From a virus: 17,017 nt of DNA. The position numbers and the translations under genes were made by a program. Shown here piece after piece: positions 135-17,007 of the stretch; position 1 is the stretch's first letter; each line of letters begins with the position of its first letter. Location of the stretch: UHGV virus genome UHGV-0118085. One strand, written 5' to 3'. The notes beneath the pieces were generated by a model. That model was not told where the DNA came from, did no database searches, and saw only the letters and a list, made by a program, of their open reading frames with translations.

Positions 135-140
135 TGTGAT

Positions 141-158
141 GTCCACACATCGTCCACA
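141..158. promoter_or_regulatory. Two direct GTCCACA repeats 11 bp apart, candidate integrase arm-type sites
   Basis: GTCCACA occurs at 141..147 and 152..158. The same pair with the same 11-bp spacing occurs at 16863..16869 and 16874..16880. Direct repeats one helical turn apart flanking both ends is the pattern expected for tyrosine-integrase arm sites. Confidence 0.5.
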
Positions 159-478: not shown

Positions 479-1612
479 CTATTCAGTTTCTGCAATCCAG
501 TCAGATATTTTTGCTTCAAAGTTAAGCTGTGTAGTAAATCCATTGCTATCAACGTCATGCTGTACCTTGCTGATTATCCAGTCCTGGGCGTCAATATCTG
601 CCTTAAAACCGGTCACGGTCGAATGCATTTCCGGGTACAACTCCGCACGCCCGCGCGCCAAGGTGATCGAAAACTCCGCCGCGCCGCGCTGTAACTGCTG
701 CCACTTTGCCGCCGCTGCGCGCCTAGCGGCTTCTTCGTTCTGGAAGGTTTTACGCATAATAAAAACGTTACCTTCAGCGCCTTCAATGTAGTCACCTTCC
801 CTGCTGCTGCTCTTATCCTTTTTTTTCGTTGTGGCACGGCGACGAACGCTAACCTTTTTCTTTTTCCCGTAGTTTAGATCAAGCCAGTACGCGCGGACGC
901 CGGTATAAGCGTCACGATCAGCAACCCGGAAGCGGTGCCGGTCTCCACTGCTGCGCGTGATGGCAATCGACGGAATAGCCTTCCCTGATGCAGTGAAACC
1001 ACCACCCGGCACGATAAACAGCAGACTTCCATTTTTTACCGTGGCGATGGCCCCTAACATTTCCGCCATTCTGGTCAGAAATGACATATCGCTTTCCTGA
1101 GTCTGATCGGCGTGATCAATTTCCACATCCATCAACAGATCGCTGATTTGCGGCGTCAGGTCATACCGTTTTGCGATAGCAGACACAATCCGCTCCACAG
1201 TCACATCATGCCAGGAGACTTCACGCTTTACGTTAAACTCTTCTCTGAAATCTGCACTTCTGGCAGTCACGGTGATACGGTCGGGCGGCCCGTCGTGCGC
1301 CACTTCATCAACCGTGTAGATGCCCTTATAAACCAGCGCTTCACCCATCCACCCCAGCCAGAAAGACAACTCAGCGCCACGCGGCGGAAGAGCAACGCTT
1401 CCATCAGTGTCATCCAGCTCTAATGTCAGCTGATCGGCGTCAAAACCCCGGTTGTCCGTCAGGCTGATGGATATCACGCGATCTGATAATTCTGTTAACA
1501 CCTTCCCGCCTTGCCGGACGCTGAATGCTGGTATTTTTAACGCCTCCGTCAGGATGTCATCGACACCGCCAGCCGCGCCCGAAATCATACTGCTGATCAC
1601 TGAAACACTCAT
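479..1612 (-). CDS. D: Phage tail protein D (gpD / late control D family)
   Basis: Long ORF resembling the P2 gpD family and immediately upstream of ogr. The track ORF runs to 1726, but the ATG at 1612..1610 is preceded by GGAGG and gives a P2-D-like length of about 377 aa, so I prefer that start. Confidence 0.8.
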   Translation of the reverse strand: MSVSVISSMISGAAGGVDDILTEALKIPAFSVRQGGKVLTELSDRVISISLTDNRGFDADQLTLELDDTDGSVALPPRGAELSFWLGWMGEALVYKGIYTVDEVAHDGPPDRITVTARSADFREEFNVKREVSWHDVTVERIVSAIAKRYDLTPQISDLLMDVEIDHADQTQESDMSFLTRMAEMLGAIATVKNGSLLFIVPGGGFTASGKAIPSIAITRSSGDRHRFRVADRDAYTGVRAYWLDLNYGKKKKVSVRRRATTKKKDKSSSREGDYIEGAEGNVFIMRKTFQNEEAARRAAAAKWQQLQRGAAEFSITLARGRAELYPEMHSTVTGFKADIDAQDWIISKVQHDVDSNGFTTQLNFEAKISDWIAETE

Positions 1613-1672
1613 ATACCCTCCCGTTTTGCTGAATAATTCCACGCGGGCGCGCGTGGGAGAATTCGTTTTAGT

Positions 1673-1690
1673 TGTCAGAGAGATAGCACA
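1673..1690 (+). promoter_or_regulatory. TGT-N12-ACA dyad, the Ogr-dependent P2 late-promoter activator-site pattern, upstream of FI
   Basis: TGT at 1673..1675, a 12-nt spacer cagagagatagc, then ACA at 1688..1690. The dyad centre is about 70 to 85 bp upstream of the FI start, the right region for an activator site near -55. Confidence 0.5.
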
Positions 1691-1753
1691 ACCAGAAAGG
1701 CGTGAAGCCGTTACGTCAATCAGCAATCATGGTGGCGAACTCAACAAAACGTA

Positions 1754-2956
1754 ATGGTGACAAACATGTCTGAGACACGTTTTCACGGTGCTCGCACCAA
1801 AGAAGAAACCGACATCACGAGGGTAATTAACGACATTGACTCCAGCGTCATTGGCGTGATTGTCATCGCTGATGACGCAGACGAAGACGCTTTCCCACTT
1901 AACATCCCAACGCTTATCACGCGGCCTCAGTCGATGCTCGGCAAGGCAGGGAAAACAGGGACGTTGTACAAAACACTGAAAGCTATTTCAGACCAGGCAA
2001 GCGCGAAAATCATTGTTGTTCGTGTTGCCACGGCTAAACCGCCGGAGGAAGGGAAAACGGCGGAAACACAGTCGCAGTTGATTATTGGTGGCTCTGATGC
2101 TGACGGTAACTACACCGGCATGTATGCGCTACTGACCGCCGAACAAAAAACGGGATATCGCCCGCGCGTCCTGGCGGTGCCGGAATACGATACCGAAGAA
2201 GTAACATCACAGCTTTGCGTGATCGCCAAACAGCTTCGCGCCTTTGTTTATGCTGGCTGTAACGGCTGCAACACACTGGCAGAGGCCCGGCAATATCGTG
2301 AAACCTTCGCATCACGTGAACTCATGCTGATCTGGCCTAACTACATTGCCTATAACCAGGTGTCCGGGGCAAATGAAGAGTTTCCCGCCCCAGCCTATGC
2401 GGTAGGGCTGCGCGCGTTTATTGACAACCAATACGGCTGGCATCGTTCTCTGTCTAACATCGCCGTCAGTAACGTGCTTGGCATGTCGAAGGACGTTTTC
2501 TGGGCGCTCCAGGCTGAAGACAGCGACGCCCAGACGCTGAACAACGATGAAATCACCACCATCATCAAGCGTAACGGCTTCCGCTTCTGGGGCAACCGCA
2601 CCACTGACACCAATGAATTTACTTTTGAGGTGTACACCCGTACGGCGCAAATCCTGGCGGACACCATCGCAGAGGCACAGTTTGAAACCGTTGACGGGCC
2701 ACTTACCCCAACCAACGTGAAAGACGTGGTGAGTGCAATTAACAAGAAACTCAGCGCACTTGTGACCGCTGGCAAGCTGCTTGGCGCGGAGGCGTGGTTT
2801 GACATTGTGGACAACCCGACCGCAAACCTGATTCAGGGAAAAGTGGCGATCCGTTACAAGTATACGCCAGTACCGCCGATGGAAGATTTAACGCTGATCC
2901 AGACGTTCACCGATGAATATTTTGAAGGCGCGTTTTCGTCTCTGGGGAGTAACTAA
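1754..2956 (+). CDS. FI: Contractile tail sheath protein (P2 FI family)
   Basis: 400-aa ORF with tail-sheath hallmarks (DADEDAFPLN near the N-terminus, GFRFWGNRT, LRAF, C-terminal YTPVPP). Its stop is immediately followed by the start of the tube-like ORF, as for FI-FII in P2. The true start may be the ATG at 1766 (MSETRF...). Confidence 0.85.
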   Translation: MVTNMSETRFHGARTKEETDITRVINDIDSSVIGVIVIADDADEDAFPLNIPTLITRPQSMLGKAGKTGTLYKTLKAISDQASAKIIVVRVATAKPPEEGKTAETQSQLIIGGSDADGNYTGMYALLTAEQKTGYRPRVLAVPEYDTEEVTSQLCVIAKQLRAFVYAGCNGCNTLAEARQYRETFASRELMLIWPNYIAYNQVSGANEEFPAPAYAVGLRAFIDNQYGWHRSLSNIAVSNVLGMSKDVFWALQAEDSDAQTLNNDEITTIIKRNGFRFWGNRTTDTNEFTFEVYTRTAQILADTIAEAQFETVDGPLTPTNVKDVVSAINKKLSALVTAGKLLGAEAWFDIVDNPTANLIQGKVAIRYKYTPVPPMEDLTLIQTFTDEYFEGAFSSLGSN

Positions 2957-4039
2957 ATGGCGATTCCAGCAAAATTGCGGCTGTTCACCTGCTTCGTGAA
3001 CAGCGTAAACAATATCGGCAAAGTGACATCTGTGACGCTGCCAAAACTGACCCGGAAAACGGAAGACTACCAGGGCGGCGGCATGATTGGTTCCGTTGCC
3101 GTCGATCTCGGACTGGATATCTGGCGATTCTGGGAACCGATCAAAGCCTTCTTTGCGGGCTTCTTTGCCGGTGTGATGCAGGCTCTTACACCGTTCCGGG
3201 ATGCCTTTGCCGGGCTGGCCCCCGTCTTTGATGTGATCTCGAATGCCGTTTCTGAGTTATGGCAGTGGTTCAGCAACCTGCTTTCACCAATGACGACCAG
3301 CAAAGAGATGCTTGATAAATGCGCAAGCGCTGGGGAGACATTCGGCAAAGTGTTTGGCCTGGCAATTCAGGGGTTAATGTTGCCTCTGACCGGGCTAGCC
3401 AAAATGGTTGGATGGATACTTGAAAAGCTGGGACTGATTCCATCCGGGATTGAAACAGCAAAAGCAAAAGCTGAGAAGGTACAGAAGGAACTAACACCGG
3501 CAGGATTGACTATGCTGCAGGACAAAGTTGGCGCGCTCACTGGTGATGTAAAAGCAGTAACCGCACCACCTATCGCACCGCCATCACCGGTGATTGCCGC
3601 AGATACAGGAACACAACGACGCTTACAGAAAATTGCCGACAACACCGGCGGGATGCTGGATGAAACCAAAAAACGGATCGGCCCTGGCGATATAGTGTTT
3701 AAAAACCTGCCCCGCGCATTAGCCGTCCACGGCACATGGCAGGAAGCACAATCAACCCAAGGCGCTAACCTGACCCAACTGAGCGGGCGACCGGTTATCG
3801 CAGCGGCATCAGCCCCGATTAAACCAGCGGCTGAAATACAGGCTATTGGCGGGCAATCCAGGAAACAAATCAGCAGATCGGCGCAAAACACCACGCCTGA
3901 TGAAATGCATATTCACATTCATATGCACGGCAATTTCAGCAACGACGCCCGCGACATTGCGCGCATGACCGCCGACGCAGTACAGGCAGAATTTAATAAG
4001 CGCTTCCGCTCACGTAGCAGCTTCAGTGACAATGAATAG
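2957..4039 (+). CDS. Chimeric ORF: tail-tube (FII-like) N-terminus fused in frame to a tape-measure (gpT-like) C-terminal portion; probably a deletion remnant
   Basis: The first ~54 residues (MAIPAKLRLF...VTLPKLTRK...VDLGLD) resemble the tail-tube N-terminus. The remainder is an Ala/Gly-rich, partly hydrophobic sequence typical of a tape-measure C-terminus. 360 aa is far too long for a tube protein (about 170 aa) and far too short for a tape measure (about 800 aa). Confidence 0.6.
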   Translation: MAIPAKLRLFTCFVNSVNNIGKVTSVTLPKLTRKTEDYQGGGMIGSVAVDLGLDIWRFWEPIKAFFAGFFAGVMQALTPFRDAFAGLAPVFDVISNAVSELWQWFSNLLSPMTTSKEMLDKCASAGETFGKVFGLAIQGLMLPLTGLAKMVGWILEKLGLIPSGIETAKAKAEKVQKELTPAGLTMLQDKVGALTGDVKAVTAPPIAPPSPVIAADTGTQRRLQKIADNTGGMLDETKKRIGPGDIVFKNLPRALAVHGTWQEAQSTQGANLTQLSGRPVIAAASAPIKPAAEIQAIGGQSRKQISRSAQNTTPDEMHIHIHMHGNFSNDARDIARMTADAVQAEFNKRFRSRSSFSDNE

Positions 4040-4051
4040 GAGAGCAAAACA

Positions 4052-5749
4052 ATGATGATGGTTTACGGAATGTTCGTCTTTGAGTTAAAAACCGTTCCCC
4101 ACCAACAGTTGCAGCAATCAAAGACCTGGAGGCATGTGAAGAACGAACGCATAAACCGATCGGCAAAATGGCAATACATTGGCGCGGGTGACGATCAAAT
4201 CACCCTATGCCAACTCACCATGAAGCCGACAAAGACGGGCGGCGATCTGAAGGAAATTGACGCGCTCACGCGCCAGGTGAAGAAACTGGCAGAAGGACAA
4301 CCGGCGCAGCCATTCAAGAAAGCGCGCGCGAGCAAAAAGAAAAACCACTTCACCGAAGCGCAGATCGCCGCGCTGCGGGAAAAAATTCAGGACTCCTTGG
4401 CCTGGCATCAGCAAGGATGGTTTGAACAGCGCCAGCAGCGCAACCGCATGATCCTGAAAAGTCGCCAGATTGGCGCTACCTGGTACTTTGCCCGTGAAGC
4501 GCTTTTACAGGCGCTGCGGGATGACGTTAAGCACGGGTATCAGCGCAACCAGATTTTTCTGTCAGCGTCACGTCGCCAGGCGCACCAGTTCCGGGGCTTC
4601 ATCCAGAAGGTTGCAGAAGAAGTCGACGTAGAGCTAAAAGGCGGTGACAAAATTTTGTTATCTAACGGGGCCGAATTGCATTTTCTCGGCACGTCTGCTG
4701 CTACCGCGCAGAGCTACACCGGCAACCTGTTTTTCGACGAATTTTTCTGGGTAGGTAACTTTGCCAACCTCCGCAAGGTGGCTGGCGCAATGGCAACCCT
4801 GAAAGGACTGACGCGCACTTATTTTTCAACGCCATCGAGCGAAAGCCATGAAGCCTACCCCTTCTGGACGGGTAAGCGCTGGAATGAGAAGCGGGCAAAA
4901 TCCAGCCGAGTAGAGTTCGACACAAGCTGGAAGACGCTCAACAGCGGCCTGTTGTGCCCGGATAAAACCTGGCGGCAGATTGTCACCCTGAAGGACGTGA
5001 TCGACCACGGCTGGGAGTTCACCGACCTGGAAGAAATCCAGGACGAAAATACCCCGGACGAATACACCAACCTGTACATGTGTGAGTTCGTCAAAGAAGG
5101 TGAATCCGTTTTCTCACTTAATCAGCTACTGACGTGCGGCGCGGACGGCTACGACGACTGGCAGGACTGGAAACCCTACGCCCCCCGCCCGCTTGGCGAT
5201 CGTGAAGTCTGGATAGGCTACGACGCCAACGGCGGCAGTGGCAACGGTGACAGCGGCGCTGTTTCCGTGGTTACCCCTCCCCTGGTCAGTGGCGGCAAGT
5301 TCCGCACGATAGAGACGCGCCAGCTACGCGGGATGGAGTTTGAAGAACAGGCCAAAGTGATCGAAGACCTGACCATTAAATACAACGTCCGGCACATCGC
5401 AATTGACGGTACCGGCATTGGTGAAGCGGTCTGGCAACTGGTCAAGAAATTCTTCCCGGCGGCGGTCTGTTTCATCATGTCGCTGTCATCAAAGCGCACT
5501 CTGGTACTCAAAATGCAGCAGGTGATCCGCGCGGGCCGCTGGGAGTATGACCGTAGTGAACAGGCGTTAGTGTCAGCATTCAACGCCGTCAGGAAAATCA
5601 CCACCGCCGGTGGACAAATTACCTATGACACCGATCGCGCGCGCGGCGTCAGTCATGGCGACTTAGCCTGGGCAAATATGCTGGCAATCATCAACGAGCC
5701 ACTTGGACGCGAGAACGGCAGCGGCGGCGGTTCCGTAAGAGAGTTTTAA
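4052..5749 (+). CDS. Chimeric ORF: gpU-like tail-protein N-terminus (about 65 aa) fused in frame to a nearly complete large terminase (gpP-like, ATPase plus nuclease)
   Basis: The N-terminus MMMVYGMFVFELKTVPHQQLQ...WRH...ITL...TGG matches the gpU family pattern. The rest carries terminase large-subunit features (KSRQIGATWYFAREAL, QIFLSAS, GNLFFDEFFWV, YFSTPSS...YPFWTG, C-terminal IAIDGTGIG). An RBS (GGAG) precedes the ATG, and the stop overlaps the Q start (TAATG). Confidence 0.65.
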   Translation: MMMVYGMFVFELKTVPHQQLQQSKTWRHVKNERINRSAKWQYIGAGDDQITLCQLTMKPTKTGGDLKEIDALTRQVKKLAEGQPAQPFKKARASKKKNHFTEAQIAALREKIQDSLAWHQQGWFEQRQQRNRMILKSRQIGATWYFAREALLQALRDDVKHGYQRNQIFLSASRRQAHQFRGFIQKVAEEVDVELKGGDKILLSNGAELHFLGTSAATAQSYTGNLFFDEFFWVGNFANLRKVAGAMATLKGLTRTYFSTPSSESHEAYPFWTGKRWNEKRAKSSRVEFDTSWKTLNSGLLCPDKTWRQIVTLKDVIDHGWEFTDLEEIQDENTPDEYTNLYMCEFVKEGESVFSLNQLLTCGADGYDDWQDWKPYAPRPLGDREVWIGYDANGGSGNGDSGAVSVVTPPLVSGGKFRTIETRQLRGMEFEEQAKVIEDLTIKYNVRHIAIDGTGIGEAVWQLVKKFFPAAVCFIMSLSSKRTLVLKMQQVIRAGRWEYDRSEQALVSAFNAVRKITTAGGQITYDTDRARGVSHGDLAWANMLAIINEPLGRENGSGGGSVREF

Positions 5750-7152: not shown

Positions 7153-9924
7153 TTAATCATCTAGCAACGGATCTTGTGCCTTACTGGAATTAACTTGCTC
7201 CAAATGCTTAATACAATCTTCACTTGAAATAAAATAGACCTTAGGTTTTTTCCTTAGCTCATATGTCAAAAATACTGTCACTTCCATTTTTACATACGTT
7301 TTCAGATTAGTTTCATTTATATCTAATCCTCTTGAAGTCAACAAACTATCAGATGGAGAAGTGAAAGATGCTTTTAATATATCGTCTCCCTCAAGAGAAA
7401 AACAACAAACATCATCAAGATGAATATAATAAAAACCATCCTTATTAAATTTTACATCATTTTGTACTCTATATCTCATTCCTCTGTAGAATCTGACGTT
7501 ATGATCAAAATCATTCTCTATTGCGCTTATAGTTATAAACTTCAAACCTTCAGGGAGTTGGTTAAGATTCTTAATAATAACAACATCCATATCATGAAGA
7601 TCACTAATCAAATGAGAAGTGATGAGTTTGAAAACATTTGCCGCATATAAAGATGGAGATTGGGAATATATTTCTCCATTAATGGGCTTAATAATCTGTC
7701 GCTTCGTAATTAGATATTCAAAAACAAACTTGTCACTAATATTTTCACAACTACACTCTAAAGTAGCAAACTCACGAAATGTTTTTATGAAATCATTTTT
7801 TAATCCATCTTCATATAGCTTCATGAGTTCTTCATCATAAGGAGTATTGATCACATCATTGACTTGAATATCAAGAATCTTAGAGTTTATTTCTTCAAAT
7901 CCAGAAAGTAGATTATGCTTACGCTCATCAAAACTATTAAGCTCATCATTATGAGCTTCTAATTCGAGTAAATCCATAACTTCTCTAAAAAAATCTGATT
8001 GATATATAGACATGACATCATCTATAAAATGAGATGAAAGATTATTTACCTTTACAAGGTTCTCTAAATCATCAATATATATTAGACTTAAACCATTATT
8101 GTACGAACGACCTTTGAATAAAATCAATGCTAAAGCAAAAGCCATATAATGTTGTGATCTTATAGAAATAGCACCTGAGCCAGTTGCATCCCTTATTTCA
8201 AACTCATCTATATCATCTAAAAAAACAGATTTTAACGAAAAAAGAATATCATAAACTTCTGATATGAAGTAAATCTCCGTTAAGTAATGAGGATTCAACC
8301 ATTGGCTCAGCAAGTTTGCCAGATCTAATATTTCCTCATTCTTATTTTTTAGTTCACATAATCGAATGCCATCATTTTTTCCTAGTAGGTGCTCCAACCG
8401 CATTCCAATACAAGATATCACTATTTTATTCGCATCAATCAGCAAGGATTGTCTAGTATTCAATTCAGATGATGAAATGCCAATATAAATGTTATTATTC
8501 CCAGTAAGAAATGTAGTGTTTATTTTAAAAGCATCATAATGTCTATTGACAAGGTTTTTAATACTCGACTTAAGATAAATCTCAAGAAACTTATCACTTT
8601 CAGAATACATAACTCTTTCTTCTGTGAAACTCCTAGACTCAATCAAAAAACCATAATATGAAGATGGATCATAAATTATTCTCGGAAGAGAAAGCATAGA
8701 ACTAAAGACGATTAGAGCTTTTTCAATATCGGTATATAGAAGAAGCCATAGCAACTTATTATAAAACGCGAATAGTATTGTTTGTGGTGTATTTTTTGAG
8801 GATGGGGATTCATATATGAATCGTTCCAAACTTAAAAACACTCCTGCACTTTGAGATTTTGAAATTATTAAATATATTACTTCCACACAAAAATCAAGTT
8901 GACTACTTAAACTCCCCTGCAAGGTGTTTAATGTATTCCTTACAACCATCAACTCTATTTCATCATAAAAATAGAAATTTTCGCTTTCATTAAGATAATT
9001 GAATGATTTACTAATGAGCGTTTTAATTTTATTAAGAGACTCATGATTTTGATTCAAATTAATGCCTTCATCAGAAAAAATAATGGCATCTCTATCAATC
9101 ATAGGCTTGTGAAATGTAGGTGAGATATATAATACAACTTTTGAAGTGCCGAAAATTTTTGTTAGTTCAGCATTCAATTTATTTAGATTATTCTTATTAA
9201 GGCCAACTATTACTTTCTTATCCGTAGAATATGTATTTTTAATTTTTACTCCATTTAGAGGCATGAACTCCATTTCATATTTAATAACTGAATTCTGTTG
9301 GTTTTTTATAAAATTACGAAATTCAGCAAGTAGATGCTTGCTATTATTATTACTATCTAAAACAAATGAACTAACTTCCGTTACTTTATTCAATAAAATT
9401 GCATCAATCAACTCTTTTTTCTCTGTTATATAATATAAACTCCTGAACATGGATATGTATCGGAATATAAAAAAAACAGAGCATGATACTGACAAGGCAT
9501 ATTGAATAACCCCCCCACCGATTACCAAGAAAAAGATTCCCACAAATAATCCGCAAATAGCATTAAGGCTGAATGAATAAAATTTATATTCTCTCAATAC
9601 CAATTGCCTTGTTACATTAACAAAATACTTATTTGATGCCTCTGTAACCTGTTGAACAAACATTCCCATAAATGCAATTGATAATGCAGCGATTGTTCCG
9701 TGGATTGATAATATAGTTCCCCAAGAGCTAGGAATCCAATTTAACTCTGCTTTATTAACGTATAACGGAGAAATAAAGAGCCAGCGATAGTCAGAATCTC
9801 CTCCTGCCCCTACAAAAAATAAAACCGAACCTAAAAGCAAAATTAAACCCATCTTAATAAAAGACTCAATTGCTTTTTTACCTGTGAATTCAGCCACCTG
9901 CTTTGATATTTTACCACTATCCAT
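7153..9924 (-). CDS. Large AT-rich cargo protein of unknown function with about four N-terminal transmembrane helices; candidate anti-phage defence or exclusion protein
   Basis: Uninterrupted 923-codon ORF. Sampled 60-nt lines inside it give 19/60 and 14/60 G+C, against 37/60 in a sampled line of gene A. Hydrophobic segments fall at residues about 25-41, 66-90 and 118-165 (nt about 9430..9852). No Walker A, HUH, DPPY or other motif recognised in the soluble part. It occupies the P2 tin/old position between A and cos/Q. Confidence 0.8.
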   Translation of the reverse strand: MDSGKISKQVAEFTGKKAIESFIKMGLILLLGSVLFFVGAGGDSDYRWLFISPLYVNKAELNWIPSSWGTILSIHGTIAALSIAFMGMFVQQVTEASNKYFVNVTRQLVLREYKFYSFSLNAICGLFVGIFFLVIGGGVIQYALSVSCSVFFIFRYISMFRSLYYITEKKELIDAILLNKVTEVSSFVLDSNNNSKHLLAEFRNFIKNQQNSVIKYEMEFMPLNGVKIKNTYSTDKKVIVGLNKNNLNKLNAELTKIFGTSKVVLYISPTFHKPMIDRDAIIFSDEGINLNQNHESLNKIKTLISKSFNYLNESENFYFYDEIELMVVRNTLNTLQGSLSSQLDFCVEVIYLIISKSQSAGVFLSLERFIYESPSSKNTPQTILFAFYNKLLWLLLYTDIEKALIVFSSMLSLPRIIYDPSSYYGFLIESRSFTEERVMYSESDKFLEIYLKSSIKNLVNRHYDAFKINTTFLTGNNNIYIGISSSELNTRQSLLIDANKIVISCIGMRLEHLLGKNDGIRLCELKNKNEEILDLANLLSQWLNPHYLTEIYFISEVYDILFSLKSVFLDDIDEFEIRDATGSGAISIRSQHYMAFALALILFKGRSYNNGLSLIYIDDLENLVKVNNLSSHFIDDVMSIYQSDFFREVMDLLELEAHNDELNSFDERKHNLLSGFEEINSKILDIQVNDVINTPYDEELMKLYEDGLKNDFIKTFREFATLECSCENISDKFVFEYLITKRQIIKPINGEIYSQSPSLYAANVFKLITSHLISDLHDMDVVIIKNLNQLPEGLKFITISAIENDFDHNVRFYRGMRYRVQNDVKFNKDGFYYIHLDDVCCFSLEGDDILKASFTSPSDSLLTSRGLDINETNLKTYVKMEVTVFLTYELRKKPKVYFISSEDCIKHLEQVNSSKAQDPLLDD

Positions 9925-14992: not shown

Positions 14993-15265
14993 TTAAAGGC
15001 CCATCCAGAGCAACCAGGCATCACGCTGTTCAACCGGGCGGTTATAGAACGCCTCACGCACCCCGCGATTGAACTCAGGAACAAAGACCAGCTTTTCTCC
15101 CGCGCGCGCTTTTGGCTTCGACGGATCACGAAACTCAATAACCGGCAGCTTATTTTTTTCAATCATGGTTTGTACGGCTGTGCGTGGTTTACCTAGCAAT
15201 TCCGCGAACTTATCAGGATGTACCGCATCAAGCGGGTACTGAATAACGTAATCAGCAGCTTCCAT
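14993..15265 (-). CDS. cox: Cox-like excisionase / early repressor of the lysogenic promoter
   Basis: 90-aa ORF divergent from the C repressor gene, resembling P2 Cox (FAELLGKPRTAVQTMIEKNKLPVIEF...). It is the first gene of the minus-strand early operon leading to A. Confidence 0.75.
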   Translation of the reverse strand: MEAADYVIQYPLDAVHPDKFAELLGKPRTAVQTMIEKNKLPVIEFRDPSKPKARAGEKLVFVPEFNRGVREAFYNRPVEQRDAWLLWMGL

Positions 15266-15426
15266 AAACTATCTCCATTCTCATTTGGTTACATGCTAAC
15301 CTTGTAAGATCCAGCGGCTTTAAAACGGCTCAGGATGGTTCCTGAGCGGCTGGACTCACGCCCAAAAAGGTTCTGAGTCAATGACCTTTTCGGGTGAGTA
15401 TAGTCATTAAGTCAGGACCAAATCAA
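15266..15426. promoter_or_regulatory. Divergent early/lysogenic promoter-operator region between cox and C
   Basis: 161-bp intergenic region between divergent cox and C. It contains a perfect palindrome gctcagga-tggt-tcctgagc (15328..15347), near-direct repeats ggttcctgag / ggttctgag (15338..15347 and 15369..15377), and a -10-like TATAGT (15399..15404) upstream of C. Confidence 0.55.
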
Positions 15427-15720
15427 ATGAATCTTGCTCAAAAATTGCGAGCGATCAGGAAGGCAGAAGGGCTAACACAGGCTAAATTCTGTGAAATCAG
15501 CGGGATAGCGTTAGGAACGCTGAAGAATTACGAAGGAGGGCATCAAGAGCCAGGTATACAAGTGATCATGCAGGTAACTAACACGGCGCATTTTGAAAAA
15601 TACACCCTGTGGTTAATGACCGATAAGACAGCACCAGAAGCCGGGCAGATTTCCCCGGCCGTCGCACACTCTGGGCAAGACGAAACAACCTCGTCACCAT
15701 CAGGCCGCAAAACTGGCTAA
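15427..15720 (+). CDS. C: Immunity repressor C (P2 C family, helix-turn-helix)
   Basis: The C-terminal half (FEKYTLWLMTDKTAPEAGQISPAVAHSGQDETTSSPSGRKTG) closely resembles P2 C. I start it at the ATG at 15427 (MNLAQKL...), preceded by AGGA, giving 97 aa; the track ORF begins at a GTG at 15394. Confidence 0.85.
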   Translation: MNLAQKLRAIRKAEGLTQAKFCEISGIALGTLKNYEGGHQEPGIQVIMQVTNTAHFEKYTLWLMTDKTAPEAGQISPAVAHSGQDETTSSPSGRKTG

Positions 15721-15862: not shown

Positions 15863-16843
15863 ATGACTATCAAAAGACTCGATGATGGGCGTTATGAAGT
15901 GGATATCAGACCGCGCGGGCGTGAAGGACGTCGCATCCGCCGAAAATTTGAGAGAAAGGCTGAAGCTATTGCCTTTGAGCGCTACACATTAGCGAACGCT
16001 AACCAGAAGGAATGGGCGGGCCAGAGAACAGATCGCAGATCTCTATCTGAATTACTGGATGCCTGGTGGAAGTATCACGGTCAAAACCATGAACACGGTG
16101 AGAAGGAATTTAACCACCTCACGAAGACGATCGGCGGCATCGGTGACATACCCGTTAGCCGCGTGAGCAAACGGCTCCTGATGGACTACCGTTCTATGCG
16201 ACTTCGTGACGGTATCAAGGCATCAACAATTAACCGTGATATGTACCGTTTTTCAGGCATGTTCACCAAGTTGATTCAGTTGGAAGAGTTTTCCGGCACA
16301 CATCCAGTGCATGGACTACCGCCACTGGCAGAAGAAAACCCAGAAATGACATTTCTGGCAAAGGAAGAGATCAGCAGCTTACTAAATGCCTTAACCGGCG
16401 ATGCAAGATTGATTGCCCTTCTGGGCGTCAGTACCGGTGCGCGATGGTCTGAGTTGGCAACGTTAAAGCCTTCTCAGATCGTCAATTGCCGCGTGACTTT
16501 CCTGAAGACCAAAAACGGGAAAAAGCGCACTGTTCCAATTTCTGCTGAACTAGAAAAACTGATCAAGAGGGAGGCAAGCGCGAAACTGTTTAAAGTGGAC
16601 TATGAAAAATTTTGTCTGATCCTGAAGGCGGTAAAACCAGATATACCCCCGAACCAGGCAACACATATTCTGCGTCATACCTTCGCAAGTCATTTTATGA
16701 TGAATGGGGGTAACATTATCGCGCTACAGCAGATATTAGGACATGCCAGCATCCAGCAAACGATGGTTTACGCGCATCTGTCGCCAGACTATCTGCAAAA
16801 TGCTGTCTCACTAAATCCCCTTGCCGGTGGCGTATCGCTTTAA
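15863..16843 (+). CDS. int: Tyrosine integrase (P2 Int family)
   Basis: 326-aa ORF with the catalytic signature HILRHTFASH ... MVYAHL (H-x-x-R and the nucleophilic Tyr). It lies downstream of C on the same strand and next to the right att repeat, as in P2. Confidence 0.9.
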   Translation: MTIKRLDDGRYEVDIRPRGREGRRIRRKFERKAEAIAFERYTLANANQKEWAGQRTDRRSLSELLDAWWKYHGQNHEHGEKEFNHLTKTIGGIGDIPVSRVSKRLLMDYRSMRLRDGIKASTINRDMYRFSGMFTKLIQLEEFSGTHPVHGLPPLAEENPEMTFLAKEEISSLLNALTGDARLIALLGVSTGARWSELATLKPSQIVNCRVTFLKTKNGKKRTVPISAELEKLIKREASAKLFKVDYEKFCLILKAVKPDIPPNQATHILRHTFASHFMMNGGNIIALQQILGHASIQQTMVYAHLSPDYLQNAVSLNPLAGGVSL

Positions 16844-16854
16844 GATAGGAGTGA

Positions 16855-16887
16855 CCTAGAGTGTCCACATTGTGTCCACACTCTAGG
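16855..16887. promoter_or_regulatory. Inverted repeat cctagagtg / cactctagg enclosing two direct GTCCACA repeats; candidate integrase arm-type sites
   Basis: GTCCACA at 16863..16869 and 16874..16880, 11 bp apart, identical in sequence and spacing to 141..158. It sits between the integrase stop and the att core. Confidence 0.5.
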
Positions 16888-16962
16888 AAATTCAAAACGG
16901 CTCAGGCTGGCTCCAGCATTTTATAAGTAGCTGTTTTTACTTGAGGTTATACGTAAGTTATT

Positions 16963-17007
16963 GATAAAAAAAACCCCCACATCATGTGGGGGAAGACAGG
17001 GATGGTG
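16963..17007. repeat. Attachment-site direct repeat, int-proximal copy
   Basis: Matches 45..89 at 44 of 45 positions and includes the same A-run plus ccccaca/tgtgggg hairpin. Confidence 0.8.

Follow-up and report, generated by a model that had tools for sequence, protein, structure and literature searches.

Putative Cox boxes shared by the lysis-lysogeny switch and the integrase-side attachment arm of a decayed Wphi-type prophage, and a conserved inverted repeat around its Int sites

The directionality factors of P2-like phages recognise similar sequences, in similar arrangements, at the lysis-lysogeny switch and at the attachment site (PMC7498355). The Cox protein of P2 acts on cox-boxes of the form TTAAA(G/C)NC(A/C) at Pc, at attP and at P4 PLL, and it contacts DNA through its helix 2, in which T25 and D33 are candidates for the residues that set specificity (PMC3936717). 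In the GenBank record of P2 the Cox footprint lies between the core and the int-side (P′) arm boxes. The Cox protein of Wphi recognises an imperfect 12-nt direct repeat in the Pe-Pc region (PMC5009727), and the C operators of Wphi, as given by the oligonucleotides of another study, are GTCACCAATA repeats nearer the C gene (PMC1904263). Apl of phage 186 has seven operators at pR-pL and five at attP (PMC7498355). [quoted passage not shown]

We analysed a stretch of DNA of 17,017 nt, referred to below as the window. We estimate at about 0.78 the probability that its positions 16844-16962 are the integrase-proximal att arm of a Wphi-type prophage, with Int arm-type boxes and putative Cox boxes that would couple the switch to the direction of recombination, and with an RNA stem as a separate layer. 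Along the arm, the int stop codon is followed by two Int arm-type boxes, two putative Cox boxes, a segment rich in A/T that includes an IHF-like match, and finally the 45-bp core.

This layout is the known architecture of P2, Wphi and 186. The locus resembles P2 in having one winged helix-turn-helix protein that would be both the repressor of Pc and the directionality factor, in boxes spaced 10-11 bp apart, in a putative att site for this protein between the core and the int-side arm boxes, and in the distance from the arm boxes to the centre of the core (~113 bp in P2, ~114 bp here). It differs from P2 in box sequence, which is unrelated, in the number and orientation of the boxes (P2 has at least six, in both orientations), in attB, and in the placement of the arm boxes, which in P2 fall within the int coding region and lack an inverted repeat around them. 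As in 186, there are short direct repeats at 10-11 bp spacing both between face-to-face lytic and lysogenic promoters and at att, with a protein in the dual role of directionality factor and regulator, but Apl is a distant outlier of the family, and 186 has CI-type immunity, other arm-site and box sequences and a tRNA attB. Lambda Xis is likewise a winged helix-turn-helix directionality factor that occupies tandem sites (X1-X1.5-X2) head-to-tail, in the interval from an Int arm site to the core, thereby bending the DNA for excision, but it plays no role in the lysis-lysogeny switch.

The prophage and its integrase-side arm

Sequence comparison identifies the whole window as a decayed Wphi-type prophage of the P2 family, ~16.9 kb long and integrated at the 3′ end of cpxP. 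A 45-bp direct repeat, gataaaaaaaa[a/c]ccccacatcatgtgggggaagacagggatggtg, forms the att core at the ogr-side junction (45-89) and at the int-side junction (16963-17007). It includes a 33-nt exact block, its two copies differ at one base (A9C4 vs A8C5), and its sequence is identical to the attP core of Wphi. The int-side copy holds the terminator hairpin of the cpxP 3′ end on the minus strand; the terminator scan reported this hairpin inside the core as a terminator on the cpxP strand. In E. coli ES1, the home of a related intact prophage, cpxP is annotated directly beside the same att site. Between the core repeats the genes run in the order ogr, D, remnants of tail and head genes, gene A, a methylase gene, small ORFs, cox (minus strand), C (plus) and int (plus), and Pfam matches were obtained for Cox, C, Int and Ogr. 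Because structural genes are inverted, deleted and fused, we regard the prophage as decayed.

The structural region has several further features. D (479-1726, minus strand) adjoins an inverted sheath gene (1754-2956, plus strand), only 51 aa of the tail tube protein are left in the ORF at 2957-4039, and the ORF at 4052-5749 joins the N-terminus of GpU to the large terminase. The majority of the tail, lysis and head genes are lost, and gene A is intact. An ORF of 923 aa (7153-9924, minus strand), which had no match in Pfam or PADLOC, is flanked by the portal gene and gene A, where P2-like phages have cargo that varies.

The regulatory and integration module (cox, C, int and att) reads as intact and Wphi-like. 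The cox gene (14993-15265, minus strand, 90 aa), assigned as a Cox homologue already by the sequence-only reading, matched PF10743 in Pfam (1.2e-22) and the P2 Cox structure 4LHF in the PDB (6.7e-21), and its product is by homology a winged helix-turn-helix protein that represses at the switch and also acts as directionality factor. [quoted passage not shown] The gene of the immunity repressor C (15427-15720, plus strand, 97 aa) has an HTH_3 match in Pfam, and int (15863-16843, plus strand, 326 aa) encodes a tyrosine recombinase, also recognised by Pfam. Compared with their Wphi counterparts, Cox is 79.5% identical (over 83 aa), C 66% and Int 84%.

The arm beyond int carries two Int arm-type boxes, arranged as a direct repeat in 11-bp register, TGTCCACA-ttg-TGTCCACA (16862-16880, plus strand), with the single boxes at 16862-16869 and 16873-16880 and TGTGGACA as their reverse complement. 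The sequence-only reading had recognised an Int-proximal arm here by a GTCCACA pair enclosed between outer repeat arms, and this assignment holds on all points: the pair is enclosed as described, GTCCACA is the reverse complement of the tgTGGaCa consensus of P2-type Int arm sites, and direct repeats of it are present on both sides of the core and in relatives. On the ogr side the pair reads TGTCCACA-cat-CGTCCACA (140-158, plus strand; reverse complements TGTGGACA and TGTGGACG), an arrangement also seen in Wphi and P2, and has no inverted repeat around it. A box pair follows int in Wphi and ~30 relatives, and in all relatives examined, and the P2 GenBank record has the P′ arm Int site at the equivalent place. 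Since the boxes match the consensus, are paired on the other arm as well and keep the same arrangement in Wphi, P2 and the relatives, we identify them by comparison as the int-side Int arm sites, the P′ Int sites in P2 nomenclature. In most IMG/VR prophage calls the int stop codon is the exact end, so that the arm is missing; a scan with the DNA pattern of the arm-box pair recovered more arms.

Adjoining the core, TATCAATAACTTA (16951-16963, minus strand) fits the IHF consensus WATCAANNNNTTR and is kept in relatives as gtaagtnattgata; the other arm keeps at 118-132 the segment aaaaggattt, part of the annotated IHF site of P2. The 13-mer TGTCCACATTGTG, made up of the first Int box and the spacer, recurs inverted at 419-431, in the beginning of ogr, as part of the codons for the CPHC zinc-finger motif. 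This copy is a single box, ~270 bp from the ogr-side arm boxes, and its recurrence is probably a coincidence of coding sequence.

Putative Cox boxes at the switch and on the arm

A 13-mer on the arm, aaaacggctcagg (16894-16906), is identical to positions 15322-15334 in the cox/C intergenic region, and when the comparison is extended to 15322-15344 and 16894-16916, 20/23 positions agree. Both the shared 13-mer and its extension had been noted from the letters alone, with the proposal that the 13-mer is confined to these two places; the window indeed holds two copies only, even when two mismatches are allowed. Exact 13-mer direct repeats as such are not unusual over the whole window (5 pairs, with a mean of 3.2 in Markov simulations). 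When only the cox/C intergenic region (161 nt) and the int-side arm (122 nt) were compared, 0/1000 simulations attained 20/23 and 1/1000 gave an exact match of at least 13; as these regions were picked after the fact, conservation in relatives is the stronger evidence.

The shared element can be resolved into tandem 10-bp boxes with a consensus of approximately AYGGYTCCWG. The arm has two putative Cox boxes on the plus strand, ACGGCTCAGG (16897-16906), which the 13-mer covers, and CTGGCTCCAG (16907-16916). They are spaced 10 bp and lie between the Int arm boxes and the core, in the order annotated for P2; two boxes only are visible on the arm, against six in P2. The putative Cox operator of the switch region (15314-15355, plus strand) consists of four phased boxes, all in the same orientation, GCGGCTTTAA (15314), ACGGCTCAGG (15325), ATGGTTCCTG (15335) and GCGGCTGGAC (15346), and their spacing of 11/10/11 bp is the arrangement expected of directionality factors (PMC7498355). 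Across the whole window and on both strands, YGGYTC forms chains at 10-11 bp spacing in two places only, the switch and the att arm, and the looser YGGYT[CTG] forms the four-member chain of the switch and one stray two-member chain inside cox (15175/15185). A four-member chain appeared in 0/300 simulations, a descriptive figure, as the pattern was drawn from the same sites; because the consensus derives from the sites counted, the chain count is partly circular.

A predicted early promoter Pe (15397-15426, minus strand; TTGATT, 18-nt spacer, TATACT) reads toward cox from the same place as the annotated Pe of Wphi. For Pc, no candidate passed a consensus promoter scan of the window, in which Pe and the cpxP terminator were the only features detected, and its position was taken solely from the Wphi annotation; by alignment with the annotated Wphi Pc, the switch boxes would begin right after the Pc -10. 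In five relatives (L003, L007, L012, L025 and L064) 450-780 bp of extra DNA separate the cox start codon from the box region, with boxes and C operators kept; this is probably one or more genes inserted at the head of the early operon.

Wphi, with the Cox and Int identities given above and the identical att core, has repeats whose two locations coincide exactly with those of the boxes: one set directly follows the Pc -10, and the other lies 15-20 bp from the Int arm boxes, on their core side. These repeats are of a different, TCCCTTCTAGG type at both the switch and the att arm: TCCCTTCTAGGT/TCCTTTCTAGGG just after the annotated Pc, and CCCTTCCAG/TCCCTTATAGG in attP just beyond the Int arm boxes. 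The att arm has two tandem boxes 10 bp apart in both elements. The repeat in Wphi attP, which is related to that of the switch, is reportedly a Cox site (Ahlgren-Berg et al. 2009, Virology 385:303), and the stretch that we take to be protected by Cox is CCCTTCCAGTCCCTTATAGG. Apart from the box sequence, AYGGYTCCWG here and TCCCTTCTAGG in Wphi, the two differ at 6 of 10 Cox helix-2 residues and in the switch, where four boxes at 10-11 bp stand against two strong repeats 20 bp apart in Wphi. Cox binding was measured in Wphi, whereas the boxes described here are predicted from sequence.

The relatives provide further evidence that links the boxes to Cox. Across 28 distinct relatives having both regions, the class of box (CGGYTC-type, CCGYTC/ACGTTC-type or CCCTTC-type) agrees between switch and arm. 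For 13 representatives, the likeness of operator and arm was 11.38 matches of 14 within the same element versus 10.26 between different elements (permutation p = 5e-5), an effect that is modest because every box class varies the same theme. The Cox proteins of the relatives are nearly invariant in their C-terminal half, and most of their differences fall at residues 26-38, the counterpart of helix 2 in the alignment with P2 Cox; the equivalents of P2 T25, R29, R30 and D33 in this helix differ between box classes, and at least three box classes follow helix-2 variants. Where Cox is 91-97% identical and Int only 80-82% (L016, L018, L024 and L032), AAACGGYTC is kept at both places. Wphi and L009, with similar Int and a different Cox helix 2, have CCCTTC-type boxes at both places. 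On the arm of L016, L018, L024 and others there is a near-perfect tandem repeat, ACGGTTCCAG/ACGGTTACAG, which supports the reading of the shared element as a direct repeat. In ~28 relatives the boxes at both places follow the DNA-binding helix of Cox, and not C or Int.

It is very unlikely that the motif serves another protein, whether C, Int or one supplied by the host, for example IHF, or that it is a functionless duplicated remnant. All three proteins do act in this region in P2-type phages, and exact 13-mer repeats are not rare in the window. Yet a remnant would hardly be conserved at both places and co-vary across the relatives. In L003, where Cox is 99% and Int 98.5% identical but C only 67%, the C-operator segment is replaced and the boxes are kept, and the Wphi C operators, GTCACCAATA, lie elsewhere, nearer C; a C operator was ruled out on these grounds. 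The Int arm boxes TGTCCACA stay invariant while the motif changes by class, which speaks against Int, and the divergence of the motif between phages of the same hosts speaks against a host factor.

A host repeat was also considered as the origin of the 13-mer and was rejected within the 293 loci searched. There the degenerate 12-mer AAACGGYTCMRG was found only at the switch and on the arm of this Cox class, plus two stray matches, and since it is restricted to these two places it is not a general repeat.

The switch boxes overlap a nested dyad (15311-15353) with an outer part CCAGCSS/SSGCTGG and an inner part YTCAGGA/TCCTGAR. Compensatory changes were observed in both parts among 18 relatives, with 90% of the cells paired, and 0/500 shuffles reached the covariation score. 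The dyad may form a stem-loop where the Pc and Pe leaders overlap, and as it covaries underneath the boxes, part of the conservation of the switch may serve RNA structure and not Cox. With both copies of the shared motif beside or within structures kept by covariation, the motif itself might act at the RNA level, the leader of the cox mRNA pairing with the int 3′ UTR and so affecting int expression. Judged from promoter positions and gene order, both copies would be on the Pc (C-int) transcript, in its 5′ leader and its 3′ UTR, and the convergent Pe leader would be the exact complement, with 13/13 and 20/23 positions complementary; such pairing also predicts that the two copies co-vary. It predicts neither the tandem 10-bp helical phasing nor the link to the Cox helix, however, and the homologous switch repeat of Wphi is a published site of the Cox protein. 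In several relatives, moreover, the copies have only a core of 8-10 nt in common, which is short for a duplex in trans. We consider this explanation very unlikely, to the same degree as the alternative binders.

The tandem boxes on the att arm thus very probably bind the Cox excision/switch protein, and the earlier suggestion of a Cox-type site gains support from Wphi, from P2 and from the co-variation in relatives. Cox monomers would bind the boxes head-to-tail, one per helical turn. At the switch, Cox would sit directly downstream of the Pc -10 and cover the start of the Pc transcript, turning off C and int transcription and reinforcing the lytic programme. On the att arm, Cox between arm-bound Int and the core would bend the DNA, so that the excisive complex is favoured and integration disfavoured. 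With the same protein and the same type of box at both sites, the developmental switch would be coupled to the direction of recombination, as in P2, Wphi and 186.

An inverted repeat around the Int boxes

The outer arms had been described, with no role assigned to them, as cctagagtg (16855-16863) and cactctagg (16879-16887), and they are exact reverse complements. The full inverted repeat, cctagagtgt/acactctagg (16855-16887, plus strand), pairs 16855-16864 with 16878-16887 over 10 bp, encloses the Int boxes and starts 12 nt after the int stop codon. To assess covariation we used a gap-free alignment of 28 distinct int-side arms from elements with the same att core. Seven flank positions on each side vary freely and yet stay complementary, as in the pairs cctagag/ctctagg, cccagag/ctctggg, cccggag/ctccggg, cccgaag/cttcggg, ccctgag/ctcaggg and tctctgag/ctcagaga. 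In the 28 arms 86.7% of the cells are paired and eight pairs have changed on both sides, among them pair 9-35, with GC10/AU5/UA5/CG1/GU1. The covariation score was reached by 0/500 shuffles, and slid registers all scored far lower. RNAalifold independently predicted the same stem, and the minimum free energy fold of the plus strand had a z-score of -2.66. Compensatory substitutions of this kind point to base pairing in a single strand rather than to a protein site, and by this comparative evidence pairing of the outer arms is under selection.

The 33-bp element is nearly palindromic, as TGTnnACA is itself symmetric, and the repeat lies exactly around the Int boxes; it might therefore work in double-stranded DNA, as a cruciform or other architectural element, or as a symmetric protein site that loads Int on the arm boxes. 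The counts of G-T and A-C over all cells, 14 versus 9, would also agree with this. We find such a role doubtful. The flanks are free to vary with complementarity kept, to the extent of GC, AU, UA and CG at one and the same pair, which is the signature of pairing. The flanking repeat is missing from the ogr-side arm, from P2, where the boxes are inside the int reading frame, and from the distant relatives L010, L011 and L082, so that Int binding as such does not need the stem. In otherwise intact stems the single defects are all G-T on the int-sense strand (4-5 independent cases, no A-C), except for a G-G mismatch in L020, which suggests the plus, int-sense strand as the pairing strand. Cruciforms are a further consideration, as a 10-bp stem with a 13-nt loop extrudes poorly.

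In the C-int mRNA the repeat most likely folds into a stem-loop at the 3′ end, and in the scheme proposed above it would form a separate layer within the untranslated part of that message. Its start so close to the int stop codon would suit an intrinsic terminator of the C-int operon, as would the G+C-rich stem and T run of some relatives. The window copy is followed by aaattcaaaac, with no T run, its loop has 13 nt, and the terminator scan found no intrinsic terminator at 16855-16887; termination is accordingly an unlikely function, more so than a role in double-stranded DNA. In L016 and its relatives the G+C-rich stem is followed by TTTTTG (cttcggggTTTTTG in L016) and resembles an intrinsic terminator, unlike the copy in the window.

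A retroregulator of the lambda sib type was rejected on position. In lambda the int mRNA is controlled through sib, which is beyond the core, whereas the stem here is on the int side of it; being between int and the core, the stem accompanies int in phage and prophage alike. An Rfam scan of the whole window gave no family match at the gathering score.

Our best guess is that the stem-loop protects the 3′ end of the mRNA or serves as a control point of int expression. P2 Int is cited in PMC11789052 as a protein that binds its own mRNA and in this way regulates itself (Yu et al. 1994), which makes an RNA role of the stem a testable lead. A more specific proposal, that the stem regulates in cis as an RNA element of the C-int mRNA 3′ end, through which Int senses its own message or nucleases set Int levels, is tentative, and we hold it to be no likelier than the role in DNA. 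If it were true, the same 33 nt would have two uses, in DNA as an arm site for recombination and in RNA as an element that controls the supply of integrase. In the literature searched we found no description of a stem around Int arm boxes, and the stem is the only element of the arm that may be new.

Implications for the P2 family

Apart from the stem, novelty lies in the sequence of the boxes in this Cox class and in the three-way co-variation of recognition helix, switch operator and att boxes. The findings mainly confirm, at the level of sequence and in a previously undescribed Cox specificity class, the standard logic of the P2 family, by which one small protein reads the same box at the lysis-lysogeny switch and at the attachment site. 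As helix, operator and att boxes change together, the relatives form a small natural series on how the specificity of a directionality factor drifts under a fixed architecture, and this series could be of use in predicting heteroimmunity and cross-excision between P2-like prophages. The conserved stem, in turn, is a cheap lead on the control of int expression in Wphi-type phages, which is less well settled than that of lambda.
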